Shown here: piece by piece, positions 10,223-30,480 of the stretch
How positions within the stretch are numbered: the stretch's first letter is position 1
Layout: each line of letters opens with the position of its first letter
Assembly: GCA_900290365.1 (NCBI GenBank)
Contig: OMOE01000167.1
Location: forward strand, 6,305-70,304
Length of the DNA: 64,000 nucleotides
Reading direction: 5' to 3'
Source: Syntrophobacter sp. SbD1
Lineage (GTDB): Bacteria > Desulfobacterota > Syntrophobacteria > Syntrophobacterales > Syntrophobacteraceae
Position numbers and translations under genes: made by a program
Notes under the pieces: model-generated
Told to the model about the DNA's origin: nothing
Seen by the model: only the letters and a program-made list of their open reading frames with translations
Databases searched by the model: none

Positions 10223-10230
10223 CGGGACCT

Positions 10231-12017: not shown

Positions 12018-12147
12018 GCTTGAGTGCACAATGTAATCTATTTATTTTCAACGACAGAGGCATTAATTTTGTCTGACGTTCCCATAACGAGGGGGACCTG
12101 TGGCGAAAGCATTTTCGGCAGTGGCAATTCAGAAACTGTAAAACCAA

Positions 12148-13803
12148 ATGAGCCTCTCTCTAGATGCCAGACATTTGAAACGTTACAGGGAACTTGCCGG
12201 ATTTCTGATCAAGTACGGGCGCTCAGATATATTTTTTCGGGCCGGGCTTGAAAAAGTGCTCGATGAACAGCCTGCTGCCGAAAGGGTCAGCCCCGGGGCG
12301 GAAGAGCTTCCCAAAGACCTGGAGAAGATGGGTCCCACATACGTAAAACTGGGGCAGTTCCTTTCCACCCGCTCCGATCTGCTGGAGCCCCAATATATTG
12401 AAGCCCTCTCTCGCCTTCAGGACAGAGCCGAATATTTTTCTTATGAGAAGGTCGAGTCAATTATTACTTCCGAGCTGGGGCTGCCCGTAGCCAGGCTGTT
12501 TTCCTTTTTCGACAAGACGCCTCTTGCCGCCGCTTCCCTGTCGCAGGTCCACCGGGCTATCCTTCTTGACGGGCGCTCCGTGGCCGTAAAGGTCCAAAGG
12601 CCCGGCATCCGCGATCAGATAGCCCTGGACCTCGATGTGCTCCTCGAGTTGGCCGGATTTCTGGACAGACATATCGACGTGGCTAAGAGGTTTATGCTCC
12701 AGGAGACCATCGAGGAATTCCGAAAAGCGCTTGTCCAGGAACTCGATTTCAAGGAGGAAGCTCAGAACCTGGTGATACTCTCGGAGAACCTTGAAGAATA
12801 CGAGAAAATTGTGGTGCCGTTGCCCGTCCATGCCTATACTACCTCGAAAGTGCTCACCATGGAACATATCCGAGGGCAAAAGATTACAAGCATACATCCC
12901 CTTGGCAGGCCTGAAATCAACGGGCACGAACTTGCCGATGAGCTGTTCAGTGCGTACCTCAAGCAAATCCTTATCGATGGGTTCTACCACGCCGATCCGC
13001 ACCCCGGAAATGTGTTCCTGACTGACGATGGGCGTCTGGCATTGATAGATTTGGGTATGGCCGCCCGCATCTCCGACGGTATGCAAAAAAAGCTTCTCAG
13101 GTTCACCCTGGCTATAAGCGAGGGCAAAACCGATGAGGCCGTCCAGTATGCGATTGAAATCGGCGAAAAGACCCCTGCTTTTGACGAGCAGGCCTTTGGC
13201 AAACAGGTGCAGGAATTCATAACGCGCTGGCAGAGGATTAGAATCGGGCAAATGGAGATCGGCCGGGTCATCCTGGAGGTGCTCAAAGTGGCGGGAACCA
13301 GCGGTTTTCGTTTCCCGGCCGAACTGGCGATGCTCGGAAAGTGCATGCTAAATCTCGACAATATCGGCCGAACTCTGGACCCGGCATTCGATCCGAACGC
13401 GGCTATCCGCAGGCATGCCGGAAAACTCTTAAGGCAAAGGCTTTTAAAGAGGCTGTCGAGCGCCACCCTTTATAAAATGGCCATGGAGTCGGAAGAACTG
13501 GCTGAAAATTTCCCTCAAAAGCTCAGAAAGATAATCGACATCTTCGCCGACAACGATTTCAGGGTCGGCGTCAATGCTATTGATGAAAAATACCTCATGA
13601 GGATGTTCCAAAAGATCGCCAACCGCATTGCGATCGGGATTATAATAGCGGCCATCATTATCGGGGCAGCAATACTAATGCGTGTGGAAACCCCCCGGTT
13701 CACGCTTTTCGGGTATCCAGGGCTGGCAATAATTTCTTTTCTCATTGCCGCCATAGGGGGACTTATATTCGCAATCGTAATGTTGATAAAAGACGAAAGG
13801 TAG
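12148..13803 (+). CDS. ABC1/UbiB (AarF) family atypical kinase with C-terminal TM helices
   Basis: GPTYVKLGQFLSTRSDLLEPQYIEALSRLQD, AAASLSQVHRA, VAVKVQRPG, HADPHPGNV and IDLGM. Confidence 0.85.
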   Translation: MSLSLDARHLKRYRELAGFLIKYGRSDIFFRAGLEKVLDEQPAAERVSPGAEELPKDLEKMGPTYVKLGQFLSTRSDLLEPQYIEALSRLQDRAEYFSYEKVESIITSELGLPVARLFSFFDKTPLAAASLSQVHRAILLDGRSVAVKVQRPGIRDQIALDLDVLLELAGFLDRHIDVAKRFMLQETIEEFRKALVQELDFKEEAQNLVILSENLEEYEKIVVPLPVHAYTTSKVLTMEHIRGQKITSIHPLGRPEINGHELADELFSAYLKQILIDGFYHADPHPGNVFLTDDGRLALIDLGMAARISDGMQKKLLRFTLAISEGKTDEAVQYAIEIGEKTPAFDEQAFGKQVQEFITRWQRIRIGQMEIGRVILEVLKVAGTSGFRFPAELAMLGKCMLNLDNIGRTLDPAFDPNAAIRRHAGKLLRQRLLKRLSSATLYKMAMESEELAENFPQKLRKIIDIFADNDFRVGVNAIDEKYLMRMFQKIANRIAIGIIIAAIIIGAAILMRVETPRFTLFGYPGLAIISFLIAAIGGLIFAIVMLIKDER

Positions 13804-14053
13804 CACGAAAGAAAACATCATCGTTTACCAAACAGGTTTAGCTTGCGCAGTTTCCCCTTTTCATTTTTTTGCAGGTGTTTTAGTATCTTTCCGGGATAAA
13901 ATAGTTATGTTGTGTTTGTCAGTTCGAGTTGATTTGGGCTCAAGTGGGCTTGTCCAGCGGACTCTGCGCCCGAGCTAAGGCAGGTTCGCTTCTCATATCA
14001 AAATAGTAGTGCGGATATGGGAAGGTTGTCGTTACTGAAAGGAGATTTGTTTA

Positions 14054-14398
14054 ATGATTCACATGTCAGAGAAAGCCGAAACTGTTTTGCAGGATTATTT
14101 CAAGGAAAAGCAGATCACTCCGATCCGGATATTCCTCCAGACCGGTGGCTGAGCGGGTCCATCCCTTGCAATGGTTCTGGACGAACCAAAAGAAACTGAT
14201 GATGTTTATAAGCTGAACGGCTTTACCATGCTGGTCGATAAGGACCTTCATGAGAAGACCAAGGATATTACAGTCGATTATGTATCCTACGGGATGGGTT
14301 CCGGCTTCCGGGTGGCATCGGAAATCCCGATTGCAGGCGCCGGCGGAGGCGGGGGCCCCGTCGTGCAGTTGCTAGACAGGACCAAGGTCCGAGGGTAA
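14054..14398 (+). CDS. HesB/IscA-like protein with an in-frame UGA at 14150-14152 (candidate selenocysteine)
   Basis: GAAAGGAG RBS 8 nt before ATG 14054. Reads MIHMSEKAETVLQDYFKEKQITPIRIFLQTGG-TGA-AGPSLAMVLDEPKETDDVYKLNGFTMLVDKDL..., so the UGA sits where the family has the Cys of GGC.G. The downstream 75-aa ORF (14171-) is in the same frame and has no RBS of its own. Confidence 0.6.
14153..14185 (+). promoter_or_regulatory. Possible bacterial SECIS hairpin immediately 3' of the UGA
   Basis: GUCCA...UGGAC and CCAU...AUGG pairings are possible within gcgggtccatcccttgcaatggttctggacgaacc. Not folded computationally. Confidence 0.3.
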
Positions 14399-14410
14399 AG
14401 AACGAAGATC

Positions 14411-14446
14411 AAGGGTGGGCACTGTTTTCAGTGCCCACCCTTTTTT
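14411..14446. terminator. Bidirectional rho-independent terminator between the convergent HesB-like gene and sodC
   Basis: aagggtgggcactg-tttt-cagtgcccaccctt followed by ttttt; perfect 14-bp stem. Confidence 0.85.
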
Positions 14447-14470
14447 GACTTTACTCTTAACGTGTTCGAG

Positions 14471-15007
14471 TTACTTCACAATTCCGATGACGCCGCAAGC
14501 TGCTCGCGCGCCTGATCCGCCCGTCGGTTGGGTTTTGAAATCATCGGCCCCGGCATGAACGATTACCGAACGGCCTATTATCGATTCCGGCCCTGCGAGC
14601 CTTATGAGATTATCTGTTACTTCAAGTGTGGCCACGCCGTTTTTGTCTGCTTCGATGTTGCCCAGATCGCCGACGTGACGCATTTTGGAATTCGGACCTG
14701 CGTGGGGCATATCAGTGGGATTGAAGTGACCGCCTGCGGAATTTGCGTCGGGCGAAGTGCAGTTTCCAAACTCGTGAATGTGAAACCCGTGCGGACCAGG
14801 TGACAGGCCCTCAATGCTTGCCATGATTCGAACCCCGCCTGCGTCCTTTTTAAAGCTCACAACCCCATGTACTTTGCTGCCTTCCGTAGGGTTCATAACG
14901 GCGACCGCCTGTGTAACTTCAGATTCGGCAATCTTTCGGGAACATCCGGTAAGGGCCACCCCCAAAATGAGTCCTGAAAGCAGCACACCTTTGACAATTT
15001 CTTTCAT
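14471..15007 (-). CDS. sodC: Periplasmic Cu/Zn superoxide dismutase (lipoprotein signal)
   Basis: LTGCS lipobox, HGFHIHEFGNC, GGHFNP, HVGDLGN and GGSGARAACGVIG. Confidence 0.92.
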   Translation of the reverse strand: MKEIVKGVLLSGLILGVALTGCSRKIAESEVTQAVAVMNPTEGSKVHGVVSFKKDAGGVRIMASIEGLSPGPHGFHIHEFGNCTSPDANSAGGHFNPTDMPHAGPNSKMRHVGDLGNIEADKNGVATLEVTDNLIRLAGPESIIGRSVIVHAGADDFKTQPTGGSGARAACGVIGIVK

Positions 15008-16288: not shown

Positions 16289-17002
16289 TTATTTATTTTC
16301 GGTCTTTTTGGCCAGCTTTACAGTGAACTCCCTCGGGGACCTCTTTCTTGAAAGCCTGTCATAGATTTCCTGCTGAATTACAAGACGATCGCTAAGGATC
16401 TGCGTGATGACTCCGCCGTGCTCTCCGGCCGGCGTTCCTATGCTGACTATATACCCCCTGCCGGTGGAATCCTCGATGACTGCCCTGCTGCCGAGCTGAC
16501 CCCAGGTAATCGCCTTGAGTCCTCTTTCGATTTCACTCATGGTCATTTTTTGCAAAGGCGTCAATGCAAATCCGGCCGAATCATCCCCCTCTTCAGGCGA
16601 GTGCCCCTGGGCTGTTGTTTCTAAATTTACGAAAGGGACAAATGGATCGAGCGCCTTTACCGACACAAAGGTAAAATCGGGGGTCATCAGGGCTGAGGCT
16701 GTTTTATGTACCAGAAGTGCGTATTCCGGCGAACAATTCATTGAAGCGGCCCCGGGCTGGGGTGCAGACACATCGGGCGCCTGCGGCACAGTCGTTTGAT
16801 CCGTAGCCTGCTGTGCCGGTTGGGCCTGCTGTGCGCCTCCCTCAGAAACAGCAGATGGATTGGAAGCGGCCTGGTCAGTGCTCTGCCGGGCCTGCTCCTG
16901 GGCTGCTGAAATGGAAAAATTCAAAGCCGCCGCTGCAAGCAGCAGGACAATGATAAGATAAAAATGGCGTTCGATTGCTTTTCTCCCAAGAGGCGCTTTC
17001 AT
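16289..17002 (-). CDS. Secreted/anchored protein with a Q/A-rich linker and a PilP-like C-terminal domain
   Basis: N-terminal TM/signal. The C-terminal block MSEIERGLKAITWGQLGSRAVIEDSTGRGYIVSIGTPAGEHGGVITQILSDRLVIQQE resembles the PilP/GspC HR beta-domain pattern. Alternative start at 17053. Confidence 0.5.
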   Translation of the reverse strand: MKAPLGRKAIERHFYLIIVLLLAAAALNFSISAAQEQARQSTDQAASNPSAVSEGGAQQAQPAQQATDQTTVPQAPDVSAPQPGAASMNCSPEYALLVHKTASALMTPDFTFVSVKALDPFVPFVNLETTAQGHSPEEGDDSAGFALTPLQKMTMSEIERGLKAITWGQLGSRAVIEDSTGRGYIVSIGTPAGEHGGVITQILSDRLVIQQEIYDRLSRKRSPREFTVKLAKKTENK

Positions 17003-17114
17003 GGCTCCCCCAAGTATCTGTAGATAAAATCCTGTCAATGCCCTGACAAACATCTAATATCAATACACTATTTTTTGGCCAGATCAAACAATTTCCAAGA
17101 AGATTTCGACTTTT

Positions 17115-19521
17115 TCATTGCCGGTTCGAAGCTGATGCGATTGATCTTCCCGCGCGCAACTGCTTGCAGAAATCTTCCACCAGAGTTCGCTTCTGATAGC
17201 CGGGGTAAAGCTCGATTACCTTTTCGAAAGCCGCTATAGCTCCTTCTGTATCTCCCGCCTCGGATGAAAAGAATCCGAGCGCCAGCCATGCGTTCGAGTC
17301 TTCCGGGTCGCCTTTTAGCACTTTTCTTGCCGCTTCTACGGCGTGGTCCCCGTCACCTCTGGCATAATTATACCACCCCTTGAGCAGCCGGGCGTCACGA
17401 GAACCGGGAAAAATTTGCAGGGCAGCATCCAGTCGATTTTCCCCGAGTGCCTGGAAAACCTTCGGCAAATGTTTCTGTTGCACTAAAAATGCCACAACCA
17501 TGTCGAAATTGAATCTGGAAAAAGGATTTCGTACATATTTTTGGAAGGAGTTCCATTTTTCTTTTTGAGCGCTATTCTGGGCATCTTCCTTTTGGAGGTT
17601 TTCCATTTCTGTTTTCAGGTGCGGATCACCGGGGTCGTTTGCGTACTCCCGCTCAATTATCTCACGGGCATATTGCGCCTCCCCGTGTTTCTTGAATTCT
17701 TTGGCGACCCAGAGTCCAGGGGGCAGGTCTCCGGGGTCGAGTATGCCGTCATGGTTCGGGTCTAAGCCCTGCGGGCCGAACTCGGCAAGAATTGCCCTTG
17801 CGGTCATTTCAACCAGGCCCTTCTTGTAGAAGGAATTATCGGTCAGTTGCACGTACTTGAGCGCTTCGAGCGTCCATCTGTATGCTTCTTCGGGCTTCTT
17901 TGCGATAATGCATGCCTGGGCCAGGTTCAGGCAAAGATTCGGAAGGGGTCCTCCATCGAGCCCGTTGACCTTATCTTTTAAAAATTCCTCGTCGCGTTCG
18001 ATCGCTTCGTCAATTCTCCCCAGTTTTATAAGGGCTATGGTTATGGCGTTCTGGGCAAGAGCATCGGTCTCGCGTCCCTTTCTTCCGAGTTCAATTGATC
18101 TCTCGGCGTATTTTATGGCGTCCTCGTACCGGTCGACTGTGCAAAGCACATTGGCGAAGTCGGAATTTGCCCGCGGACTGTTGGGAGCTTTTGCTACCGC
18201 ATCGTAATGGATCGTGACCGGGTCTTCCCAAGCGCCGTTCCGGGAGAATGTCAGAAGGGTAAGGCACGCGGCGACAATGAGAAGGGATGAGCAGGCAGCC
18301 TTTGCGAATTCGGCTTCCGGGAGCCGGCGTGCGGCCTGCCGGAAAACAGTCACAAGAATGGCGGTTATTGAAAGATAAAAGCCTATCGAGGGCAGGTAGA
18401 GCCTGTGTTCGAAAACCAGTTCCAATGGAATGATCGTCGATTCGATTACGAGATTCAAAAAGAACCAGGCAATTCCGAATGTGATCACAGGAAATCGCCT
18501 TCGGAACCTGATCGCGAGGAAAATGAGGGCGCCGATCACAAGCAGAGAAGGAAGCGTAGTAAGAGGGCTTAAAAGCGAAGTGGAAATCTCGACTTCATGG
18601 TCCATAGACAGGCGGGCCGGGTTTGGCCAGAGAAGAAGCGACATGTACCATACGACTGCCCTTCCTTCGGTGAGCAGGCGCTCAATCAGATTGAAATCCC
18701 TCTTGGCGTAACCGCTGAGAAGTTCAGGCAATACGACCGCGAAGGCATAAAAGGAGGATGAAAGCAGTGCGGCAGCAGTAGCCGCGCGGACTTTCCAGCC
18801 GGTTTTCCGGCACAGGGCCCAGGCTTTTTTCAGCCAGGCGGAATCGAAAAACCAGATATCGGTTATGGCCAGCGCAACCGGCAGGACCGCCGAGTTTTCT
18901 TTCGAAAGAAAGCTACAGAGGGAGCTAAGCGCGCAAAGAAAGAAGAAAAAGATGGCGCTCCTTTTTTTGTCCCCCGAAAGAAGGCGCGCCTTTATAAAGC
19001 ACGCCACGCTCAGCGTAAAAAAAAGCGCCTGTATGGAAGCCATGCGCTGAACGAGGTATGTGACGGCGCTTGTCTGAAGTGGGCTCAAGGCCCATACGGC
19101 GGCGGCGCAGAGCGGCGGCGGCGCAGAGTGGAAGAAGGCCTGCAATTTCATGGATTGGCCCTTCTGCGCCTCTGTTCTTTCCGGCTGCAAGAACCTGCCT
19201 GAAGAACCAAAAGACTGCCACGAACGCCAGCAAGTGGATCAGCAGATTCACGGCATGAAAATAAATGCCTTTGCTGTGACCCAGAGAGTGATTGAGCGCC
19301 AGGGTGATTACGGGCAGAAATCGCGTCCAGCCGAATTTTGACTGAGAAAGCGAAAGAATGCTCGAAACCGAGACTGAATCCAGATAGAGGGCTTTGTCAT
19401 ATATGAATGATTGAAAATCATCGAGGAAAGGCGGCGAGGTGAAAGTGTTCGAGTAAGCGGAAATAATCATCAAAACGATGAAAAAGGCAAGAATGTGAGG
19501 CAGCGCTTTTTTCGCCCGCAT
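17115..19521 (-). pseudogene. Polytopic membrane protein with C-terminal TPR repeats (TMTC/PMT_2-like glycosyltransferase-type family), frameshifted by a 16-bp tandem duplication
   Basis: The N-terminal ORF (MRAKKALPHILAFF...FLDDFQSF...) and the 691-aa ORF are offset by one frame. Removing 19113-19128 gives ...AGLLPLCAAAVWALSPLQTSAVTYLVQRMASIQALFF..., continuous and family-like. Confidence 0.75.
19097..19128. repeat. Perfect 16-bp tandem duplication (cggcggcggcgcagag x2)
   Basis: Read directly: 19097-19112 = 19113-19128, exactly 2.0 copies. Confidence 0.97.
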
Positions 19522-19636: not shown

Positions 19637-20104
19637 TTATTGTGCGCCTGCCAAGCCCATGTTTGCGGCAAGCGTACCACCAAAAGTCCAGCCGGTAATT
19701 ACTTGCGCATTGTTTCCAAGAATCGGCGATGCGGTAATAGTCTGGTTATACAGGGACGAGAGCTCAGTGCAGCCCGCACCCACGATTGCGAAGGTGATTT
19801 TGAAGTTAGAAGTGGCGCCGGCGGCGGAAGTTACCGTCGGGGTAAAGCAATGGGTGTTGGCATCCGTGAACATGGCATTTACGGTTGCACCAGCGCCAGG
19901 GAACATCTGCTGAAAGCTGAAGTAAGTCGCCAGATCGGTTTGGATTGAGTGAATTCCGGGGATAACCTTGCTGGTCAGGCGCGCTTTCTGAATATACTTT
20001 TGATAGTACGGGACAGCGACCGCAGCCAGGATGCCGATGATGGCAACGACGATCATAAGTTCCACCAATGTAAAGCCTTTGCTCTCTCTCATTCTGATAA
20101 ACAT
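19637..20104 (-). CDS. pilA: Type IV major pilin
   Basis: Prepilin leader [10 protein letters not shown] followed by [38 protein letters not shown] 6 nt upstream of the ATG. Confidence 0.9.
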
Positions 20105-20429: not shown

Positions 20430-20597
20430 GCTTTCGGAAACTCGTGCCAAGTTGCATTCAAGAGCGGGCGGGGATAAACCCCGTAAGCGTTCAAACAAGA
20501 AATAATACATGTTAGACGTCAATCGCCTGAAATGTTTCAGACTTTTTTATGGTGTCAGGGTGTCCATAGGGACGTGAGGAACTGCTGCGAAAAATTC

Positions 20598-20678
20598 TTG
20601 GTGGGCACGGTAAAGTTGTGCACGCATCCCTCCTGCGGTCCTTTTCGTAGTTTAAGGTGTCCCGCAGGGACATGTGAG
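20598..20678 (+). repeat. Left copy of a ~75-bp imperfect direct repeat bracketing the 20.7-30.4 kb block
   Basis: ttggtgggcacggtaaagttgtgcac...cttttcgtagtttaaggtgtcccgcagggacatgtgag, compared with 30395-30465. Confidence 0.7.
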
Positions 20679-20745
20679 ACTGGGGTGGAATTTAAATGCG
20701 GGAGCAGAGTTTGTCTTATCAGCATACTGATTTGTTTGCCGCAGT

Positions 20746-21056
20746 TTATTGTATGCCTTGCAATCCCATGTTCAAGGCAAGTGAGCCGGAATAAGACCAA
20801 CATGTAACTAACCCCGAGAGCAGTTGCGACCAGAGGGTGTCGAGAGATGTGAGTGGAGCCTGGTTTTTGAGAGTGAAGCTAATAACGGTGCCGGCAACCC
20901 CTGCACCAAAAGAAGTGCTGTCACCGTCCGCTGCCATTTGCGCTATGGAGCGGCCCGTGTCGGGAAGTCTCCGTTAATGGCGTAATAGGTGGCGACGTTG
21001 ATTTGGAATGTGTGTATTCCGGGCCAAACCAAGCTGGTGAGGCGCTATCTCTGAAT
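20746..21056 (-). pseudogene. Pilin pseudogene or silent copy lacking the N-terminal alpha-helix
   Basis: Minus strand reads IQR*RLTSLVWPGIHTFQINVATYY... (pil[26 protein letters not shown]), and after a frame change ...WSYSGSLALNMGLQGIQ* (pil[18 protein letters not shown]). It contains two in-frame stops, and homology stops where the FTLVELM helix should begin. Confidence 0.7.
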
Positions 21057-21360
21057 GTGCCATCTTTGCCGAATCGCCTAAAAAGGTCATCGGATTAACT
21101 TTGTGGCGTATAGGCCAGTGTGCGGATAGTGGTGGAAGGTTATAATGAAGGACACTTATTGCCGCAGAGCGGACAATTTTTGTCACTACCTCGGAAAACC
21201 TCACGAAGAGCGTGCGCAGAATACGAGGTACGAATTTTGCTAGGTATATACCCATCATAATGAGATATTTACCCGAGCCGGCCCCGAAAGAGCCAGCGCA
21301 AGGATGGTCCCAGCAGGATCTGCTCTGTATGGTTTCGTGAAAAATTCAAGGACCCGACAA

Positions 21361-22428
21361 ATGAATATCTTTGTAAACATAAGTCATCCTGCCCACATGC
21401 ATTTTTTTAAGAATGCAATGAGGATACTCTCGCAAAGAGGGCATCGCGTGCTCGTTGGCGCAAGGATAAAAGAATTCACACTTCAATTGCTGAACGAAGC
21501 CCATTTTGAATACAAAACTTTGACAAAAAAAGGAAAAGGGCCCTTGGGTCTTGTTAAGGAATTAATTGAACAGCAGATAAAAATAATGGGAATAATCCGT
21601 AAAACCCCTGTGGATCTCATGCTTCAGATAAGCGGCATATTCAATGCCCCGGTTGGCAAGTGCTGCGGGATTCCGACGCTCGCGTTTTCAGATACCGAAA
21701 ACGACAAATTGGCTAATCAGGTATCTTTTTCACTGAGCAAGCACGTGATCTCCCCCACCTGCTTCAACCATGGTGCGGGGGGATCGTGGGCCAATCAGGT
21801 CCACTATCCAGGGTATCACGAACTGGCTTATTTATCACCTCGCTATGCCCCTGAAGTGGGACGGCCGCACGACAGATTCCTCCTTCGCTTTGTGGGCTGG
21901 GGGGCCGGTCATGACATAGGGGAGAAAAGCCTTTCAATCGAATCGAAAATAGAACTCGTCCGGATATTGAGCCGGTTCGGGTCGGTCCACATCTCTTCCG
22001 AAGCACCCTTGCCCGAGTCCCTGGCAAATCTGGCTTTCAAAATGCATCCATCAAAGATCCATGATTTTATGGCGACATGCAAACTGATAGTAGGAGAATC
22101 CGCCACCATGGCTTCGGAAGCTGCCTGCCTTGGAATCCCGGCCATTTTTATCTCCAACACCGGTAGAGGCTATACGACCGAGCAGGACACCAGATACGAT
22201 CTGGTCAGGCATTACCGCCTGGACCAGTGGCAGGAGATATCGCAGAGAGTGGAGGAATGGGCACAACGAGATCTTTATGAGGAATGGCAGCAAAAGCGCC
22301 GGAAAATGTTGAGCGACAAGATAGATGTTACTTCCTGGTTGGTCGACCTTGTGGAAGGCTACCCGGGAAGCATCGTGGATGCGAAAAGAGGGCATTTCGA
22401 AGAGTACCGAATTAAGTTTGCGGTTTAG
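21361..22428 (+). CDS. DUF354 family protein (GT-B / UDP-sugar epimerase-like fold)
   Basis: MNIFVNISHPAHMHFFKNAMRILSQRGHRVLVGAR matches the DUF354 N-terminal signature (HPxHVHFFKN). Confidence 0.7.
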   Translation: MNIFVNISHPAHMHFFKNAMRILSQRGHRVLVGARIKEFTLQLLNEAHFEYKTLTKKGKGPLGLVKELIEQQIKIMGIIRKTPVDLMLQISGIFNAPVGKCCGIPTLAFSDTENDKLANQVSFSLSKHVISPTCFNHGAGGSWANQVHYPGYHELAYLSPRYAPEVGRPHDRFLLRFVGWGAGHDIGEKSLSIESKIELVRILSRFGSVHISSEAPLPESLANLAFKMHPSKIHDFMATCKLIVGESATMASEAACLGIPAIFISNTGRGYTTEQDTRYDLVRHYRLDQWQEISQRVEEWAQRDLYEEWQQKRRKMLSDKIDVTSWLVDLVEGYPGSIVDAKRGHFEEYRIKFAV

Positions 22429-22481
22429 CGGAAGATTTTGGGCAGGGCGGTTACGATTCTCTAATAAGAAATTATGAACCT

Positions 22482-23645
22482 ATGTGCGACGTTTTCAAAA
22501 TATTGACGGGCGTGCTGGATGCGGCTCACGAAACCGATTACAGCGGATTCAGTAAATTTGACGCCCTGAATAGCCCTTTTCTCAATACCTTATCTTTCAA
22601 TAACAAGTGGCTGCGATTGGCATTCACACAACTTGTAAAAGAATCGCCCATAAACTTCAGACCCTTATTAAGGGTTAAGAAATCCAGGAACCCTAAGGGG
22701 ATAGCGCTATTTGCCGGTGCATATCTGTCTTTGTACAAAACAACAGGTATTGTGAGATATCTCGACCGGGCCGAGGACCTTATCGGATGGCTCCTGGAAA
22801 ATCCCAGTTCCGGCTATCGCCATCTTTGTTGGGGTTATAATCACATTTGGCAAAATACCATTTTCCTTCAGGGAATGTATGAACCTAACGCGGTAGTGTC
22901 CATATTCGCAGGTGAGGCGCTTTTGTGCGCTTACGAAGCTACAGGAAATAATCGGTATCTCAGCGCCGCCCGTTCCGTGGCCGATTTTATACTCTTCGAC
23001 TTGCCCGTCCTTTATCATTCCGGTGATGAACGAGCGATTGCGTATGTACTAAAAGAGGTTGACGCCGTTGTTTTGAACAACCAGGTCCTTGCAGGGGCGT
23101 TTTTGGCCAAACTTTGGAGGCACACGGGTGAACGCCACTTAATCGAAACAGCGCGCCAACTTATCAACTACACCGTCAATCGGCGAACGGACTACTACGC
23201 CTGGTATTATACATACCCCAGGGAAAAATCCAGGATCACGCATGACAACTACCATACCGGCGGTATCCTTGACGGCTTGGTCGAGTACTACGAACACACC
23301 GGAGACGACAGATATCTGGCAGTCTATTGGCGTGGCCTGGATTACTACCAGGCTAATCTGTTCGAACCCGATGGCAGCCCGAGATGGATGAGCGACAGAA
23401 AATATCCTTTTGATATACATGGTTCCGCTCAGGGCATCATTTCTTTCAAGAAAGCATCCCGCCACGACCGCAGGTTCCTCCCCGAAGCCGAAAAGATTGC
23501 GGGCTGGGCCGTTGCGAACCTGTATCGTGAGGAAACACGTGATTTTGCCTACCGCAAGGGCAAATGGTTTAAGTGGAATTATTCCTTGATGAGGTGGTGC
23601 AACGCCTGGATGGCAAGATCCCTGGCTTTTTCGCTCGAAGGTTGA
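22482..23645 (+). CDS. Hypothetical protein, aromatic-rich, possibly an alpha/alpha-toroid sugar-acting enzyme
   Basis: Uninterrupted 387-codon ORF in an operon-like series. I recognise no diagnostic motif. Confidence 0.55.
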   Translation: MCDVFKILTGVLDAAHETDYSGFSKFDALNSPFLNTLSFNNKWLRLAFTQLVKESPINFRPLLRVKKSRNPKGIALFAGAYLSLYKTTGIVRYLDRAEDLIGWLLENPSSGYRHLCWGYNHIWQNTIFLQGMYEPNAVVSIFAGEALLCAYEATGNNRYLSAARSVADFILFDLPVLYHSGDERAIAYVLKEVDAVVLNNQVLAGAFLAKLWRHTGERHLIETARQLINYTVNRRTDYYAWYYTYPREKSRITHDNYHTGGILDGLVEYYEHTGDDRYLAVYWRGLDYYQANLFEPDGSPRWMSDRKYPFDIHGSAQGIISFKKASRHDRRFLPEAEKIAGWAVANLYREETRDFAYRKGKWFKWNYSLMRWCNAWMARSLAFSLEG

Positions 23646-23649
23646 CAAA

Positions 23650-25587
23650 ATGTGCGGTATTGCTGGTTTTTTCTATTTTTCAGGGCGGAGTCCGGATAAT
23701 GCGGCCGGTCTGCTGCACGGCATGTCGGACCTTATGAAGCATAGAGGACCTGACGGCCAGGGTCTGTTTTCGCAAAACGGAGTTGGACTGGTGCATCGCC
23801 GGCTTGCCATAATAGACCTCCAAACGGGAAATCAGCCGATGGTCTCTGCCGATGGCCGCCTCCAGGTTGTTTATAACGGCGAGATTTACAATTACCGGGA
23901 CCTGCGCCGCCAGCTCGATTCATACCCGTTTCGAACCCGCAGTGACACTGAAGTCCTGCTTGCAGCCTACGAACGGTGGGGCGAAGATTGCTTCAAGATG
24001 CTCAATGGCATTTTCGCTTTTGCCTTGTGGGACTCCGGTTGTCGTCGGTTGCTCCTTGTCCGTGACCCTTTTGGGGTAAAACCGCTCCATATTCACATCA
24101 ACAAGGACAGGATAGCCTTTGCATCGGAGATCAAATCCATCCTGTCGCTTCCGGATGTACAGGCGGAGGTGGACTACCAGGGTCTCCATGATTTTATGAA
24201 TGTTCGCTATGTTCCGGGGGCGGGCACGCTGTTCGCGGGGATCTCCCGGCTCGAACCCGGGCATACTATTTCGGCGGATGAACGTGGGACCAGGAATCGA
24301 AAATATTTCGATTTTGAGCCGCGCGTGGAAACCGGTGTAAGTGAAGGGGAATGGTGCGAGCGAATCGTATCGGCCACAAAATGTGCGGTGAAAAGACAAC
24401 TCATGTCTGATGTCCCGTTAGGGGTCTACCTCTCGGGGGGATTGGATTCGGGCACGCTGGTAGCTATGATGCATGCTTTGGGGGCGCCTGAAATTCTGAC
24501 TTTTTCGTTGGGTTTTAACGAACCGACCGATGAGCTCGGGGATGCGGCAATTGTTGCCAAACACTTCGGAACGGATCATTTCCCCTTGCTGATCGATCCG
24601 GAGCCACTGAAGTTCATGGATAAAGTCCTCTGGCACGTAGAGGAGCCCCAGGTGAACATGCTGCAGGGCTACATAATGGCCGAACATGCGGCAAAAAAGG
24701 TCAAGGTGGTGCTGGGAGGCCTGGGGGGAGATGAATTGTTCGCTGGTTATGTTACAAATATTTACCTCAAGAATTCCCGTTGGGGCCGTCAACTAACCCC
24801 CAAATGGCTCCAAAACACGGTTCTATCACCGCTATCGCGGTCGGCTTATCGCCTGGGGTCTCGTTTCGATTTAAAGTGGGAGGAGTTCCGGAGAGGAATC
24901 CAGTTGCTCTGTGCGGCAGGTGCTCCGGAGCGATTCTACGCAATCTTGCGAAACGTATGGGACTATGATCCGGAAGTGTCCCGCTCGCTCTACGGGGAGC
25001 GGATGATCTCACGTGAACACCTCTCGGTGGTTCGACACTTCGATCCCCATTTTCGCCATGGCGTCAATTCGGACACACTTACCGATTCGCTATGGCTCGA
25101 ATTTAATACCAAAATGATTGACGACTTCCTGCTGTCGGAAGACAGGGTCTCCATGGCGCATGGGCTCGAATCCCGCGTGCCCTTCCTCGATCTCGATCTG
25201 GTGAAGCTGGCGTTTTCGATTCCGGTCAAGCTCAAGATGCGCGGAAACGAAACGAAGTCTCTTTTCCGGAAGGCTATGAGCGCCTATTTGCCCGAACCGA
25301 TCCTGAACAAAAAAAAGTGGGGGTTTTCTTTCAACCCATACTATCAATTCCAGAAAGACCTGAAAATCGCAATCCAGGAACGATTGACTCCACAGACGGT
25401 AAAGGAGCTTGGATTCTTCAATTACGAGTTCATCGAAAAGATCTTGAAGCATCCTCCTCATCCAAGGCTCCGGTGGCATTATTTTATGTTGTGGGTCATG
25501 CTCGGATTTCACCAATGGCACGATATTTTCATAAAGAAAAATGGATTTCGGAACTGTTCCCTGGAGATTACAGGCAATAGCCGATAA
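23650..25587 (+). CDS. Asparagine synthase (glutamine-hydrolysing) family amidotransferase
   Basis: N-terminal MCGIAGFF nucleophile, HRGPDG, and the YLSGGLDSG PP-loop. Confidence 0.9.
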   Translation: MCGIAGFFYFSGRSPDNAAGLLHGMSDLMKHRGPDGQGLFSQNGVGLVHRRLAIIDLQTGNQPMVSADGRLQVVYNGEIYNYRDLRRQLDSYPFRTRSDTEVLLAAYERWGEDCFKMLNGIFAFALWDSGCRRLLLVRDPFGVKPLHIHINKDRIAFASEIKSILSLPDVQAEVDYQGLHDFMNVRYVPGAGTLFAGISRLEPGHTISADERGTRNRKYFDFEPRVETGVSEGEWCERIVSATKCAVKRQLMSDVPLGVYLSGGLDSGTLVAMMHALGAPEILTFSLGFNEPTDELGDAAIVAKHFGTDHFPLLIDPEPLKFMDKVLWHVEEPQVNMLQGYIMAEHAAKKVKVVLGGLGGDELFAGYVTNIYLKNSRWGRQLTPKWLQNTVLSPLSRSAYRLGSRFDLKWEEFRRGIQLLCAAGAPERFYAILRNVWDYDPEVSRSLYGERMISREHLSVVRHFDPHFRHGVNSDTLTDSLWLEFNTKMIDDFLLSEDRVSMAHGLESRVPFLDLDLVKLAFSIPVKLKMRGNETKSLFRKAMSAYLPEPILNKKKWGFSFNPYYQFQKDLKIAIQERLTPQTVKELGFFNYEFIEKILKHPPHPRLRWHYFMLWVMLGFHQWHDIFIKKNGFRNCSLEITGNSR

Positions 25588-25636
25588 ATGAAAATGCGGG
25601 ACGGTTCAGTCCTGAAATCGTTAAGGAAGGCGGGAC

Positions 25637-26425
25637 ATGTTCATTGGAAGTGAGTTAGCCTACCACCCAGAATATTCTCTGCTGCAAAGAGTCTATATCC
25701 GATTGCTCGGCGTCCCCATAGTCGGATTGCGTATACGCATGCGAAATATTTTTTCGCTTATCCCTGGGAACCGCTCTTATCGTAAAATCCTTGACGCGGG
25801 CTGCGGACTGGGAGTGTTTTCCTTTCATCTGGCAAGGTGTTTTCCACAAGCCGAGGTGCTGGGCATCGATCTGAGCGGTGATATGGTCCGGAGCGCGGAG
25901 CACATACGCGTGATGGCCGGAATTCCCAATGTGAGGTTCAAGGCGGCTGACATTGCAGGCATGAATGAGGAGGGGCAGTTCGACCTTGCCATATGCGTGG
26001 ATATTCTGGAGCATATTGAAGATGCCGATGCCGCGCTGCACGCGTTGCATCGGGCCCTCGGCAGTGGAGGGGTGCTGGTGCTGCACGTGCCGAACCTATA
26101 CCGTCGTTATCCCGTATGGAAAAAGAGCCTGAACTTTGACGTGGAAACGCATGTGAGACCCGGATACGAGTTGCGGGACATCCTGCACCGGGTGGAAAAT
26201 GCCGGGTTTTCCATATTGGAGAAAGGCTATACTTACGGGTTTCTGGAGACCCTCGCCAACAATATAAGCTATATGATTACTCGCGCCCGCAGACAAAATA
26301 AGAATCTTTATGCCCTGGCGTTTCCCTTTTTAAACGCTTTGTCGTGGTTTGGGGCTCGAGCCCGCCCCAAAGAGCTTGGTGCGGGGATTTATGTGGTTGC
26401 AGTGAGGGGAAAGTTCAATGATTGA
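25637..26425 (+). CDS. Class I SAM-dependent methyltransferase
   Basis: ILDAGCGLGVF motif I, DLAICVDILEHI, VLVLHVPN. Confidence 0.8.
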   Translation: MFIGSELAYHPEYSLLQRVYIRLLGVPIVGLRIRMRNIFSLIPGNRSYRKILDAGCGLGVFSFHLARCFPQAEVLGIDLSGDMVRSAEHIRVMAGIPNVRFKAADIAGMNEEGQFDLAICVDILEHIEDADAALHALHRALGSGGVLVLHVPNLYRRYPVWKKSLNFDVETHVRPGYELRDILHRVENAGFSILEKGYTYGFLETLANNISYMITRARRQNKNLYALAFPFLNALSWFGARARPKELGAGIYVVAVRGKFND

Positions 26426-27218
26426 TGAAAAGAATCACGTAATTGAAAATAGAGATATGTTGAAACGGATTGCCGACTTTTGGTCCGCTCAGCTCAATAA
26501 CGAGATATTCCTGCGCAATCACCCGAATGTCCTGCGCGGCAGCAGGGAGTACTTTGAAATCATCCTGGCCGCTCGGCTTAAGTACATCTACTATCTTCCA
26601 AAGATGATTGAGTTTCTGGAGACCATTCCTGTCAAGACCCTTCTTGAGGTCGGTTGCGGTATGGGAACAGACACCGTGGTATTCGAGTCCAAAGGATTCC
26701 AGGTTACAGGAATCGACCTCGCATCGGCGCACCTGCAATTGGCCTCTCGTCTATTTGAATATTATGGCGCCAGGGGGAGTTTCCTTGAAGCAAATGCAGA
26801 AAGACTTCCTTTTTCAAACGAAGCTTTCGGGGGCGTTTACTCATTTGGTGTACTGCATCATACTCCAAATACCGCTCTTGGAATTAGTGAGATCCATCGG
26901 GTGCTGAAACCCGGAGGCCGGGCTGTGGTTATGCTCTACAATCGCAATTCGTTGAATAACTTTGCACATTGGGTCACCCGGAAAGGTTTTGAGAATGCCG
27001 TTAAAAGAGACGCAGCAAACAGCGACGCGCCGGTGACATACAGGTTTACCAGGAAGCAGGTTGGTTCTATGTGTTCGATGTTTACCAAGTGTGAGATAAG
27101 CACCGAGTATCTGTTTGGAGCAGGCTGGAGTCGAATATACGGCCTGGTGCCCAAGCAGGTCCACGAAAAGCTGAGTAAGATTTGGGGATGGCATTTGGTA
27201 GCCTATCTTGAAAAGTAA
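26418..27218 (+). CDS. Class I SAM-dependent methyltransferase
   Basis: LLEVGCGMGTD, GVLHHTPN, LKPGGRAVV. 8-nt overlap with the upstream gene. Confidence 0.8.
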   Translation: MIDEKNHVIENRDMLKRIADFWSAQLNNEIFLRNHPNVLRGSREYFEIILAARLKYIYYLPKMIEFLETIPVKTLLEVGCGMGTDTVVFESKGFQVTGIDLASAHLQLASRLFEYYGARGSFLEANAERLPFSNEAFGGVYSFGVLHHTPNTALGISEIHRVLKPGGRAVVMLYNRNSLNNFAHWVTRKGFENAVKRDAANSDAPVTYRFTRKQVGSMCSMFTKCEISTEYLFGAGWSRIYGLVPKQVHEKLSKIWGWHLVAYLEK

Positions 27219-27235
27219 GAGTCTGTAATAGATAA

Positions 27236-28741
27236 ATGCGGAGTATGAGGCAAATGGGCAGACGTATTCGTGAGGAAATCGTTCTGGTGGCGCCCGGATT
27301 CCCGAGAAGGCAAATCGGCGCCATTCAGCATCTTCCCCTGGCCATTCTATGTCTAGCCGCATGGCTTCGTGAGAGAGGCAGTTATGATGGGCAAGTGAAG
27401 GTGCTCGATGCAAATGTTCGCAACGTCTCGGCGCCGGACTTCACCAACGCGGCAGTGGTAGGGATTTCTGCTATGACCGGCTATCAGGTCAAGCATGGTT
27501 TGAGAATTGCTGCAATGGTCAGAGAAGCCAATCCAGGCGCATTGATTGTCTGGGGTGGAATCCACCCGTCCCTTTTGCCGGAACAGACCGCCGCCCATCC
27601 TCTAGTCGATGCGGTTGTGGTTGGGGAAGGCGAACAGACTTTCCTGGAAGTGATCGATGCTGTGTTTAGCGGACGCGATATAGACGGTATTCCCGGTACA
27701 TATGTTCCGGGTTCGGATGGAGGGCTGGCGGTAGTCTCAAGGCGAGAATTTCTGGACTTGGATAGCATGCCCCTTCCGGCGTATGATTTGGTTAATATGG
27801 GTGATTATGCCGGGATCGAGAATCAGTTTGATTACCAATCTTCCAGGGGTTGCCCGTTCAAATGTGGATTCTGCTACAATACGGTCTTTTGTGGCAGCCG
27901 GTGGCGAAAGAAAGCATCCCGCAAGGTGGTCGAAGAACTCATCTATCTTCACGAGAAGTACAAAGTTGCGGCCTTCGCACTGGTAGATGACGAATTTTTC
28001 ATAGATTTGAAAAGAACAGAAGCGATTTTCGATGGGATACTCGCGAGCGGGAACAAATTTAGTCTTGTGGCCTCTTGCAGGTTGGATACGGTCCGCCGCT
28101 TTCCTGCAGCTCTGATCGATAAAATGAAACAAGCCGGTGTGATCCAAATGTTCTTCGGGGCGGAATCCGGTTCTCCCAAAATACTTCGTGCGATTCAGAA
28201 GGGTATCTCGACAGAAGATATGATAGAGGGAGCGAAGGTGGTAGCTGAGGCCGGAATCCGGCCGATATTGAGCTTCATGAGTGGGTTTCCCGGAGAAACC
28301 TCCGAGGACTTTGACAGGACGATCGATATTATTCCTCAGCTTTGGGCGACACATTCTCTGATTACTATCAATGGGATATTCCCATTCAACCCTTACCCGG
28401 GCACGGCCCTTTACTTAAGGTCTCTTGAACTGGGATTGAAGGCGCCAGAGTCGCTCGATCAATGGGGGGAGTGGAACTTCCAGTATGAACCGGACAATCC
28501 GTGGCTCTCCTCCGATATGAAGTATAAGATGGAAATTGCATTTTACATGGTGCGATTTATGTATTATTTGGCAAGGCTTGAAGATAGATATAAGGGTAAG
28601 CCAATTGTTCGCATTATCAAAATATTATCTTGGCCCGCCGTGTGTGCGGCCAAGATAAGGATGAGCAGACATAAATTCGGTATGGCATTAGAGTGGAGAG
28701 TTTTTGCCTTACTAGCTAGAAAGACATTTGGGTATCTATAA
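27236..28741 (+). CDS. B12-binding-domain radical SAM enzyme
   Basis: N-terminal Rossmann-like B12 region, then SSRGCPFKCGFCYN (CX3CX2C). Confidence 0.85.
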   Translation: MRSMRQMGRRIREEIVLVAPGFPRRQIGAIQHLPLAILCLAAWLRERGSYDGQVKVLDANVRNVSAPDFTNAAVVGISAMTGYQVKHGLRIAAMVREANPGALIVWGGIHPSLLPEQTAAHPLVDAVVVGEGEQTFLEVIDAVFSGRDIDGIPGTYVPGSDGGLAVVSRREFLDLDSMPLPAYDLVNMGDYAGIENQFDYQSSRGCPFKCGFCYNTVFCGSRWRKKASRKVVEELIYLHEKYKVAAFALVDDEFFIDLKRTEAIFDGILASGNKFSLVASCRLDTVRRFPAALIDKMKQAGVIQMFFGAESGSPKILRAIQKGISTEDMIEGAKVVAEAGIRPILSFMSGFPGETSEDFDRTIDIIPQLWATHSLITINGIFPFNPYPGTALYLRSLELGLKAPESLDQWGEWNFQYEPDNPWLSSDMKYKMEIAFYMVRFMYYLARLEDRYKGKPIVRIIKILSWPAVCAAKIRMSRHKFGMALEWRVFALLARKTFGYL

Positions 28742-28776
28742 AATATTCACACCTAACTTTATTGTGACATTTTATC

Positions 28777-29337
28777 ATGAAATTACTTTCAAATTTATTT
28801 CAAGATGAACGAGGGACTAATAGACAGAGCGTTGGAAAGAATCTGTCTGATTTTCTGGTAGATTTGTTTCTGGAATATCTCCCGCACGCACCGATAGCCA
28901 ACAGGTTAAAATCAAAACTTATGTCTCTGCGTGGCGCCAAGATGGGCTGTAGAGTCAAGTTGTTGAAAGGAGTCTGGGTCGATCGGTTTGAGGGCCTTGT
29001 AATCGGTGATGATGTTTCGATTTCAAAGGACGTTATAATCTTGGCGGTAGGCGGTGTCGAGATAGGTGATCGCTCCATGATCGGTCCCGGCAGTAAGCTG
29101 ATATCCGCCGGCCATTTGATCCCCGAAGGTCGCGGCCCGATGAGATTTTCTGGAGGCTTTCTGAAAAAAATCACTATTGAGAAGGACGTGTGGATAGGCG
29201 CCCAAGTCGTCATATTGCCGGGCATAAAGATAGGGGAGGGTGCTATAATAGCGGCTGGCGCAGTGGTTACAAAGGATGTTCCTCCATTCGCGATCGTAGG
29301 TGGAGTGCCTGCCGGTATGATCCGGATGAGGGATTGA
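28777..29337 (+). CDS. Hexapeptide-repeat (left-handed beta-helix) acyl/acetyltransferase
   Basis: Repeating [LIV]G-x4 hexapeptides: [43 protein letters not shown]. Confidence 0.8.
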
Positions 29338-29446
29338 TCTACCGTTATTCTTGCATCTCATTTTCCTTCGGTCCCAAATCTTGGATACTTTAAACTCATT
29401 GCAGTTAGTTCTATTCCATAATGGACAGACCGTGTCGGACAATTTA

Positions 29447-30382
29447 ATGAAATTAAACTTCAGGCACATATTAAAACTGATAATCACTGTAGGATTAATC
29501 GTCTACTTATTACAGTCATGTCATCCGCAACAATTACTATCGACTATATTAGACATAAATATCTCCTTGGCATGTATAATATTTATTATTAACTTAGCGC
29601 TACTCGCTTGTGGTGCATTAAATTTATGGCTGCTGTTGAACTCGATATGTCGTATACCGTTCAGATCATTTATGAATTCGTATATCTATGGCTATGCTAT
29701 TAATTTATTCGCTCCTGGTCAGCTAGGTGATGCTAGTGTAGCCATATTTCTTAAAGACCATGGAATTTATTATAGTCAATCGGCTCTTGCCTATGCAGTT
29801 GATAAGCTTATAACATTAATATTTATTCTGTTAATAGGATGTATTGGAGCAAAATATATAATCGTTGGATTTACAGAACCAATATGGATATTTGGTATTC
29901 CTATAATATGTGTTTTGGTTGGTGCAGGTGGTAGTGCACTGCTATTATATATCCCCTATGATACTGGCAAGCTGGGGCGTATCAAAAGCTTCATAACGAA
30001 TATATATAAAGAATCACTTCAATGGAAGTCCAAGGGGCAGGCGATAACTATAAATATAGTAATAACTATTCTCAGATGGTTATTGTTAAGTGTGATATAT
30101 TATCTTGCATTTCGTGCTTTTGGAGTCGATGCCAAGTGGCCGGCAGTGGGTATAATTCCGATAGTATCGACCTTGATCGGGTATATACCGATTTCGATCG
30201 GGGGCATTGGCGCCGTGGAATTATGTGCAGTATATCTTTTTTCATTAATTTCCATTGATAGAGTTTATGTAATTGATGTTTATATCTTTCTAAGATTCAC
30301 AACATACGTGCAGGCTGCTGTAATTCTCGGTCTATGTAACTGGCAATGCGGAAGGATACGGACTGTTACGAAAAGTTCCTGA
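29447..30382 (+). CDS. Flippase-like / UPF0104 (lysyl-PG synthase TM region-like) membrane protein, markedly AT-rich
   Basis: ~8 TM helices, N-terminal KLNFRHILKLIITVGLIVYLL, and GIGAVE near the C-terminus. Start chosen at the internal ATG. Confidence 0.6.
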   Translation: MKLNFRHILKLIITVGLIVYLLQSCHPQQLLSTILDINISLACIIFIINLALLACGALNLWLLLNSICRIPFRSFMNSYIYGYAINLFAPGQLGDASVAIFLKDHGIYYSQSALAYAVDKLITLIFILLIGCIGAKYIIVGFTEPIWIFGIPIICVLVGAGGSALLLYIPYDTGKLGRIKSFITNIYKESLQWKSKGQAITINIVITILRWLLLSVIYYLAFRAFGVDAKWPAVGIIPIVSTLIGYIPISIGGIGAVELCAVYLFSLISIDRVYVIDVYIFLRFTTYVQAAVILGLCNWQCGRIRTVTKSS

Positions 30383-30394
30383 TGGGTTGCGCAA

Positions 30395-30465
30395 TTGGTG
30401 GGCACGATAAAGCTGTGCCCACCCTATACCTTTTCATAATTTTGGGTGTCCCCGCGGGACATGAG
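30395..30465 (+). repeat. Right copy of the ~75-bp imperfect direct repeat; also forms terminator-like hairpins 3' of the LUD gene
   Basis: ttggtgggcacgataaagctgtgcccacc...ttttgggtgtccccgcgggacatgag. Confidence 0.7.
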
Positions 30466-30480
30466 TTGCGTGGAGAACGC

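Follow-up and report, generated by a model that had tools for sequence, protein, structure and literature searches.

Eight genes packed together beside a type IV pilin gene (pilA) in Syntrophobacter sp. SbD1 are most likely, as judged by sequence comparison, one allele of a variable cassette of glycan genes, housed in a slot of fixed chromosomal position. They span positions 21304/21361-30382 of a stretch of 64,000 nucleotides (contig OMOE01000167.1, positions 6,305 to 70,304, hereafter the window), which belongs to a metagenome-assembled genome (MAG) of 182 contigs and 4.67 Mb, designated G000. The cassette would build and decorate a lipid-carried sugar, and a GT-C membrane glycosyltransferase encoded beside pilA would attach this sugar to the pilin; we consider this account, drawn from sequences and structure predictions, fairly probable. 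A preliminary description of the same DNA, made from the sequence alone, had offered two readings of the cluster, tailoring of a lipid head group or of a glycan on a surface protein. The second is the best supported, through the conserved synteny of the GT-C gene and pilA, the alternative cassettes found in the slot, and strings of pilin, GT-C, GT2, DUF354 and AsnB genes in other lineages.

The slot beside pilA

The frame of the slot, sodC-lspA-hyp254-GT-C/TPR-pilA(-pilA2)-variable segment-LUD, is conserved in the congeneric genomes G012, G019, G002 and G008 and in the MAG SPRUCE 384, while the contig of G011 stops just beyond pilA. The window, G012 and SPRUCE 384 hold the DUF354 cassette (G012 without the second methyltransferase). 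G019 has GT4-MT-UPF0104-B12 radical SAM at this place (MT, methyltransferase; SAM, S-adenosylmethionine), G002 has MT-GT4-MT-GT2 and G008 has MT-GT4-MT-GT2-UPF0104. Glycan-type genes are found in the slot every time, and a gene for a GT4, a glycosyltransferase of GT-B type, occupies the place of DUF354 in congeners. The GT-C/TPR gene was detected in 18 of 24 congeners and in nine of nine genomes of a sister family; an orthologue of the six-hairpin gene of the cassette occurs in one of the 24 (G012, 83% identity) and in SPRUCE 384. Proteins of the cluster are 78-87% identical to their orthologues in two other species, with a lower value for the flippase-like protein (62%). Exchange of cassettes at a fixed slot resembles an O-antigen-like diversification of the pilus surface, possibly driven by pilus-specific phages or by surface or electron-transfer properties. 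Pilin glycosylation is reported to shield Pseudomonas aeruginosa from pilus-specific phages (bioRxiv 10.1101/150227).

The pilin gene lies at 19637-20104 on the minus strand, adjacent to the cluster as already noticed from the sequence. It encodes 155 aa with an N_methyl motif and matches NCBIfam pilin models, and its product is the presumed acceptor. Comparison by tblastn with pilA locates a decayed second copy at 20749-21059, between pilA and the cluster and on the same strand as pilA, which has lost the N-terminal helix and is interrupted by a stop in frame and by a change of frame. The same place in congeners holds two intact and divergent copies of pilA, which are 51-76% identical to the pilA of the window.

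Genes of the cassette

The genes were defined from the list of open reading frames (ORFs) combined with Pfam and NCBIfam scans. All eight are intact and co-oriented, and the gaps between them measure 4-53 nt. The preliminary description had announced nine genes and itself listed eight, which is the correct count; its family names, the common orientation, the tight packing and an 8-nt overlap between the two methyltransferase genes are confirmed.

The first gene, on the plus strand as are all others, encodes a DUF354 protein (21304/21361-22428; PF04007, 40.3 bits for a cut-off of 22), the start of which is placed at 21361 by alignment with orthologues. It is followed by a gene for a 387-aa protein (22482-23645), here named the six-hairpin protein, which gives only weak GH88, GH127 and AGE matches in family scans. 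Next comes an AsnB-type glutamine-dependent amidotransferase (23650-25587), recognized by Pfam and by TIGR01536 with 442 bits for a cut-off of 267. This protein carries Cys2 and the SGGLDS motif, passes the asparagine-synthase model and is a candidate for amidating a sugar carboxylate or for forming an acetamidino group.

Two SAM methyltransferases recognized by Pfam are encoded at 25637-26425 and 26418-27218. The first belongs to the conserved core, and a methyltransferase gene comes after the six-hairpin gene in most related loci; the second is a variable accessory gene. This second gene is found in the window and in SPRUCE 384 (84% identity) and has left no trace in the otherwise collinear cluster of G012, which amounts to a single-gene insertion or deletion inside the cassette. 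Another variable accessory gene (27236-28741) encodes a cobalamin-dependent (class B) radical SAM enzyme with a B12-binding domain (PF02310), a Radical_SAM domain (PF04055) and the motif SSRGCPFKCGFC, in which CPFKCGFC at residue 206 provides the CxxxCxxC core. In the NCBIfam scan it falls below the cut-off of every equivalog model; it is likely a C-methylase. Class B radical SAM enzymes act as sugar C-methylases in aminoglycoside pathways. The last two genes encode a hexapeptide-repeat acyltransferase resembling WcaF and Maa (28777-29337; Pfam and NCBIfam) and a flippase-like membrane protein of the UPF0104/LPG_synthase_TM family (29351-30382; PF03706, 108 bits), for which the ATG at 29447 is the probable start. 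Both AsnB and the radical SAM enzyme retain intact catalytic motifs.

Pfam and NCBIfam scans detect no Wzx, Wzy, GT2, GT4 or nucleoside-diphosphate (NDP)-sugar synthesis domain in the eight proteins, and among these and the flanking genes they detect no Wzx, Wzy, initiating phosphoglycosyltransferase or NDP-sugar synthesis gene. The earlier view that this is not a Wzx/Wzy locus for O-antigen or exopolysaccharide is borne out. In the literature searched, no study was found of the combination of DUF354, AsnB and the six-hairpin protein.

A radical SAM enzyme accompanied by methyltransferases and an AsnB homologue could also tailor a peptide, in the manner of ribosomally synthesized and post-translationally modified peptides, with AsnB as a lasso-type cyclase. 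Sub-threshold matches lean that way, of the radical SAM enzyme to methylases of such peptides (ApyD, 148 bits for a cut-off of 750) and of AsnB to a lasso cyclase model (240 bits for a cut-off of 525). Yet AsnB scores above the cut-off of the true asparagine-synthase model and retains Cys2 of the glutaminase, the genes come without a precursor peptide, a protease or an exporter, and the neighbours in 80 related loci are glycosylation genes; a peptide product is scarcely credible.

Predicted folds of the DUF354 and six-hairpin proteins

The AlphaFold2 model of the DUF354 protein (mean predicted local distance difference test, pLDDT, of 93) consists of alternating beta and alpha elements, consistent with two Rossmann-like domains. 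Foldseek relates it to GT1 enzymes, MurG and UDP-GlcNAc 2-epimerases with TM-scores of 0.57-0.68 and a probability of 1.0, and its sequence profile matches MurG weakly (E=0.004). A GT-B fold is predicted on this basis, and the protein becomes a candidate for a glycosyltransferase acting on a lipid-linked sugar or for a nucleotide-sugar 2-epimerase. One published prediction makes DUF354 a glycosyltransferase in which the catalytic residues are poorly conserved (PMC4520260). That the cluster lacks GT2 and GT4 genes, as stated in the preliminary description, is correct; that it lacks glycosyltransferases is too strong a statement, because DUF354 has a predicted GT-B fold, and a GT4 takes its place in congeners.

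For the 387-aa protein, the AlphaFold2 model (pLDDT 87) is an (alpha/alpha)6 barrel with 12 or more helices. Its Foldseek neighbours are glucose and cellobiose 2-epimerases, GH76 and GH88 (TM-scores of 0.62-0.64, 13-16% identity), and at the level of sequence profiles no more than a weak similarity to GH76 and LanC-like proteins is seen. Invariant His, Asp and Glu residues are present. From the modelled fold, the protein is a candidate sugar epimerase or isomerase, or else a glycan-trimming enzyme.

The six-hairpin family counts 1387 homologues, with 65-87% identity across Desulfobacterota, and its occurrence is sporadic, in 12 of 300 sampled Desulfobacterota genomes distributed over 12 genera. 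Two distant paralogues (31-33% identity) are found in the congener G018 in other contexts, at C117:3958-5046 and C60:15892-17004 (loci L016 and L017); a hexapeptide transferase gene shares the contig with one of them and an AsnB-like gene with the other. The family thus seems to have sub-families with related partners.

A core module in several phyla

Homologues of the six-hairpin protein were located in 80 loci, and their neighbouring genes were mapped by phmmer against reference proteins; 46 of the loci have full flanks. They come from Desulfobacterota, Gammaproteobacteria, Latescibacterota, Omnitrophota, Chloroflexota, Planctomycetota, Acidobacteriota and one Altiarchaeota MAG. The recurrent core is (GT2)-DUF354-AsnB-six-hairpin-methyltransferase, often joined by UPF0104, acetyltransferase and GT-C genes. 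Among the 46 loci with full flanks, DUF354 is found in 45, AsnB in 43, a methyltransferase in 37, GT2 in 35, UPF0104 in 24 and a GT-C gene, of either the TPR type or the PMT/PMT_2 type, in 23. In 27 of the 80 loci, DUF354 is directly preceded by a GT2. Among the genes after the core methyltransferase there is, in most loci, an enzyme of the B12-radical SAM type or an oxidoreductase with two domains (ADH/GFO). A SPASM radical SAM enzyme is found there in a few loci, and the acetyltransferase and any additional methyltransferases vary between loci.

The comparative check on co-occurrence with pilA finds a pilin gene in 13 of the 46 full-flank loci, and a GT-C gene accompanies it in all 13. GT-C enzymes of the TPR type occur in 18 loci, 13 of which have the pilin. 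With five ORFs that bear a strict pilin motif in the 4.67 Mb of G000, a pilin would fall within a 21-kb interval by chance in ~2% of cases, compared with 28% observed; since related genomes are not independent, this enrichment is indicative and does not amount to a test.

In the gammaproteobacterial locus L074, a co-directional string with short gaps or overlaps reads pilin-pilin-GT-C/TPR-GT2-DUF354-AsnB-six-hairpin and ends, after further genes, with UPF0104. A second gammaproteobacterial locus, L072, begins with pilin, two GT-C/TPR genes, GT2 and DUF354, and similar strings occur in the delta-type loci L029 (Ca. Electronema), L032 and L065. In delta-type loci a gene for a VKOR-DsbA fusion recurs between or beside the pilin and the PMT-type GT-C genes (L020 19309-21089, L029 16929-18125, L032 2761-3939 and L034 2582-3757); this placement hints at a coupling of pilin disulfide formation with pilin modification.

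GT2 genes that are linked to the core in related loci have their best matches among models of polyprenyl-phosphate glycosyltransferases, namely AglJ, PpgS, Dol-P-hexose transferase and ArnC, all below the cut-off; the best NCBIfam match is AglJ. G000 encodes such GT2 enzymes elsewhere. One, at C1:30960-31994, shares 54% identity with the GT2 that accompanies DUF354 in locus L025, and a second, at C95:24807-25562, resembles Dol-P-hexose transferases. The region around this second gene (C95:24807-33557, or 5808-14558 of locus L104) looks like another glycosylation locus; it comprises the GT2, a 538-aa membrane protein without Pfam match and three tandem ORFs of ~700 aa, and adjoins a porin gene. 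Two of these three ORFs were scanned; both contain TPRs and one has a weak PMT_2 match.

The GT-C/TPR gene downstream of pilA

Directly downstream of pilA and on the same strand, a gene at 17115-19521 (minus) encodes a TfpW-like or TMTC-like GT-C membrane glycosyltransferase with a C-terminal TPR region. In the assembly its reading frame is broken in two at 19097-19128, where 16 bp are perfectly duplicated in tandem (cggcggcggcgcagag in two copies). The intact orthologue of G012 (807 aa) matches it in two pieces, and orthologues are intact in most congeners, with lengths of about 800-830 aa. The duplication may stem from the assembly, may inactivate the gene or may be a switch that works by slippage.

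Assignment to the GT-C class can be made with moderate confidence from the sequence. An hhalign comparison of the N-terminal membrane domain with PMT/PMT_2-family proteins of the same loci gives a probability of 93.7%. At least eight hydrophobic segments are present, and the first transmembrane segment is followed by PFLDDF, with D45 conserved in at least 90% of the alignment (A4). Multiple TPR Pfam families match residues ~340-665 of the 691-aa ORF, and TPRs are also found in the G012 orthologue. Several relatives carry the label 'protein O-mannosyl-transferase' from the Joint Genome Institute. A route to the class through solved structures was tried and abandoned, phmmer with the full protein returning only TPR proteins and the profile of the N-terminal domain returning nothing.

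Proposed pathway and its alternatives

The proposed pathway would start at the cytoplasmic face of the membrane, where a GT2 enzyme, acting in trans from elsewhere in the genome in the case of G000, would load a sugar onto undecaprenyl phosphate. DUF354, with its predicted GT-B fold, may extend or convert this sugar, AsnB may amidate a carboxyl group (e.g. uronic acid to uronamide) and the six-hairpin protein may epimerise or otherwise remodel the product. Methyl and acyl decorations would come from the two methyltransferases, the B12-radical SAM enzyme and the hexapeptide acyltransferase. UPF0104 would flip the lipid-linked product to the periplasmic face, and the TfpW/TMTC-like enzyme encoded immediately downstream of pilA would transfer it to the pilin.

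Several points weigh against this pathway, which is built wholly on sequences, modelled structures and gene neighbourhoods. In the G000 assembly the GT-C gene carries a frameshift, so that the final transfer step may be off here if the 16-bp duplication is genuine and not a product of the assembly. The profile of the GT-C N-terminal domain matches no PDB entry, and a direct Pfam match to PMT_2 is obtained for only one of 20 members of the GT-C/TPR family. The predicted folds of DUF354 and of the six-hairpin protein do not fix their reactions, and DUF354 could be an epimerase. A scan of 21304-30382 and its flanks, and of the corresponding loci in the two closest relatives, finds no GT2 gene in or beside the cluster. 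The likeness to TfpW lies in architecture and position, as taken from the published description of TfpW, and the TfpW motif YX6PFX7P is absent from all 22 family members examined. Most of the related loci come from MAGs and their kin are not independent. Finally, 33 of the 46 full loci have no pilin within 10 kb, which implies that the core module serves other acceptors too.

This last figure also speaks for the idea that the GT-C enzyme decorates a non-pilin target, such as lipid A or the lipopolysaccharide core, another polysaccharide or other periplasmic proteins, the position beside pilA being a recombination hot spot. Many loci have an ArnT/PMT_2-type GT-C that lacks TPRs, some have Arn-like formyltransferase and aminotransferase genes, and G000 has the further PMT_2/TPR paralogues beside GT2 on C95. 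Within the genus, however, no GT-C gene lies near the slot other than the conserved one that directly follows pilA, and the genes in the slot are always glycan genes. Other lineages have the pilin, the GT-C/TPR gene and the core co-directional with short gaps or overlaps, and pilin is present in 13 of the 18 loci with a TPR-type GT-C. A non-pilin target is accordingly held to be rather unlikely.

The frameshift in the GT-C gene, the pilin remnant with its stop and frame change, and the lack of a GT2 in the cluster would also fit an island that is decaying in G000 and is without function. This is improbable in view of the eight intact ORFs with their catalytic motifs and of identities that remain at 78-87% to orthologues in two other species (62% for the flippase-like gene). 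Moreover, in a MAG of 182 contigs the duplication may be an assembly error or a reversible slippage, and the close relatives likewise have no linked GT2, yet their GT-C gene is intact.

Relation to known glycosylation systems

To our knowledge, experiments have demonstrated the glycosylation of pilins by GT-C enzymes in essentially one system, TfpW of P. aeruginosa with D-arabinofuranose. TfpW, a GT-C protein of 646 aa, is encoded by the gene that directly follows pilA and has a DDX motif on the periplasmic side, a TPR region at its C-terminus and an ArnT-like structural model; it uses lipid-linked D-arabinofuranose, the flippase for which has not been identified (bioRxiv 10.1101/2020.04.19.049825). 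The system of the window resembles that of P. aeruginosa group IV (strains Pa5196 and PA7) in the GT-C gene downstream of pilA, in the DD motif in the first periplasmic loop, in the C-terminal TPRs and in the variability of the pilin accessory region; a lipid-linked sugar made in the cytoplasm, as proposed here, would be a further shared feature. It differs in that the D-arabinofuranose of TfpW depends on DprE1/DprE2-type genes unlinked to pilA, whereas here the DUF354/AsnB/six-hairpin/methyltransferase set stands beside pilA, and in that UPF0104 provides a candidate flippase where none is known for TfpW. If the assignment is true, UPF0104 would be the component missing from the TfpW model. 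Among the 120 matches listed of 1415 relatives of a gammaproteobacterial GT-C/TPR member, no Pseudomonas name appears. The TMTC enzymes, which likewise combine GT-C and TPR regions, have prokaryotic homologues, and ArnT is their nearest structure (PMC7801869).

Three-component systems of periplasmic glycosylation combine a GT2 of the GtrB/ArnC type, a small flippase and a GT-C enzyme, and include the Gtr systems, the Arn pathway and the pentofuranose systems (PMC11127046). Shared features would be a cytoplasmic polyprenyl-phosphate sugar, its possible modification while lipid-linked (as by ArnD), flipping, and transfer by GT-C on the outer side; GT2, flippase-like and GT-C genes stand together in related loci. 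On the other hand, the candidate flippase is UPF0104 and not GtrA or ArnE/F, the tailoring enzymes number five to seven as opposed to none or one, and GT2 is unlinked in G000.

In archaea, UPF0104 (arCOG00899) has been predicted to be a glycosylation flippase, and its gene neighbours those of AglD-like GT2 and PMT/STT3-like enzymes (Makarova et al. 2015, PMC5898192). The same triad, UPF0104 with a Dol-P/Und-P-type GT2 (Dol-P, dolichyl phosphate; Und-P, undecaprenyl phosphate) and a GT-C, predicted to act in protein glycosylation (PMC5898192), is paralleled here. In contrast with archaea, where the role is itself a prediction, the setting is bacterial and the GT-C is of the pilin-linked TPR type; the DUF354/AsnB/six-hairpin core is not mentioned for the archaeal neighbourhoods in the part of that paper concerned with them (PMC5898192).

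A further parallel is the protein O-glycosylation cluster of Tannerella forsythia, in which the annotation gives an AsnB homologue a putative role in glycan modification and the glycan of which contains N-acetylmannosaminuronamide, an acetamidino group and O-methyl groups (PMC6120980). There, an AsnB homologue, several methyltransferases and glycosyltransferases are brought together in one protein-glycosylation locus, as is proposed here. The two loci differ in that T. forsythia relies on a Wzx flippase, en-bloc transfer of a decasaccharide and NDP-sugar genes (wecB/wecC, pse), none of which is found here.

The arrangement of pilA with a GT-C/TPR gene is widespread in Desulfobacterota and present in some Gammaproteobacteria. 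Physically linked to it are three unstudied families that form a widespread set, namely DUF354, the six-hairpin proteins (>1,300 members) and UPF0104. The locus offers testable assignments for these three families and a candidate flippase for monophosphate-linked sugar donors. In a more far-reaching version, offered tentatively and as one that we lean against, the core would make a new amidated and methylated polyprenyl-phosphate sugar with UPF0104 as its dedicated flippase, GT-C/TPR enzymes would glycosylate the pilins of many anaerobes, including cable bacteria, and the slot would be a serotype-like switch of the pilus surface.

The AT-rich flippase-like gene

The UPF0104 gene stands out by its composition, with 36.3% G+C and 33% G+C at third codon positions. 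In G000, 1-kb windows average 52.4% G+C (standard deviation 3.2), and 0.02% of them fall below 37%. By eye, the preliminary description had placed the AT-rich segment from ~28.5 kb onward, between flanks of well over 50% G+C. The computed values confirm the deviation for the last gene; the other seven genes have 48-52% G+C and the interval 28.5-29.3 kb dips only to 40-46%, so that the strong deviation is limited to UPF0104. As for the flanks, the statement holds on the right (52-58%) and fails on the left (about 50%).

The foreign origin that had been proposed for the last genes finds no such confirmation, even though the compositional outlier is real. An orthologue that is equally AT-rich (35-37% G+C) is found at the same position in G012, SPRUCE 384 and G019, the last of which holds a different cassette; the gene is therefore not a recent import into G000. 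The copy of the window is 61-63% identical to those of the congeners, which share 69-77% identity among themselves, and the adjoining genes show 78-87% identity between genomes. Its best relatives among 5.8 billion database proteins reach 56-67% identity, and the nearest of them appear to come from the same lineage. A recent foreign origin was dismissed, the search giving no closer homologue outside the lineage and a best match of 67% identity. From these comparisons, the gene is an old, fast-evolving resident of the slot. In this respect it resembles the wzx and wzy genes of O-antigen loci.

The LPG_synthase_TM domain of this protein also recalls the flippase domain of MprF, and the cluster might then modify a membrane lipid head group that UPF0104 flips, as had been the other suggestion of the preliminary description. 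Weak NCBIfam matches to MprF and to a glucosaminyl-phosphatidylglycerol flippase (22-23 bits for cut-offs of 320-600) go in this direction. The MprF match amounts to 23 bits for a cut-off of 600, though, and the cluster contains neither an aminoacyl-phosphatidylglycerol synthase (DUF2156) domain nor a lipid-synthesis gene. In addition, the core is consistently linked to GT2, GT-C, DegT, hexose dehydratase and GFO oxidoreductase genes, and the modelled folds of DUF354 and the six-hairpin protein are those of carbohydrate enzymes. Modification of a lipid head group is accordingly judged highly improbable, and glycosylation of the pilin is preferred.

Flanking sequences

Imperfect direct repeats of ~100 bp at 20580-20680 and 30370-30470 bracket the pilin remnant and the cluster and contain the palindrome GGTGTCCC..GGGACA. 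Shorter parts of them, 20-42 bp long, are found again on at least eight further contigs (C59, C134, C7, C1, C14, C95, C172 and C80). The repeats were considered as att sites or target-site duplications and rejected as such, for they belong to a dispersed intergenic family that is absent from the borders of the slot in congeners; they give no evidence of site-specific insertion. No integrase, transposase or tRNA gene is found near the cluster, and a scan for promoters and terminators gives counts in the region no higher than in shuffled sequence.

On the left, downstream of the GT-C/TPR gene, a 254-aa protein is encoded at 16289-17053 on the minus strand and is 48-64% identical to its counterparts in congeners. 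It has one hydrophobic segment, a linker rich in Gln, Ala and Pro and a C-terminal domain without family match, and does not resemble TfpX or TfpY. To the right of the cluster lie housekeeping genes, which encode a LUD-domain protein, Usp, a helicase and SerA.

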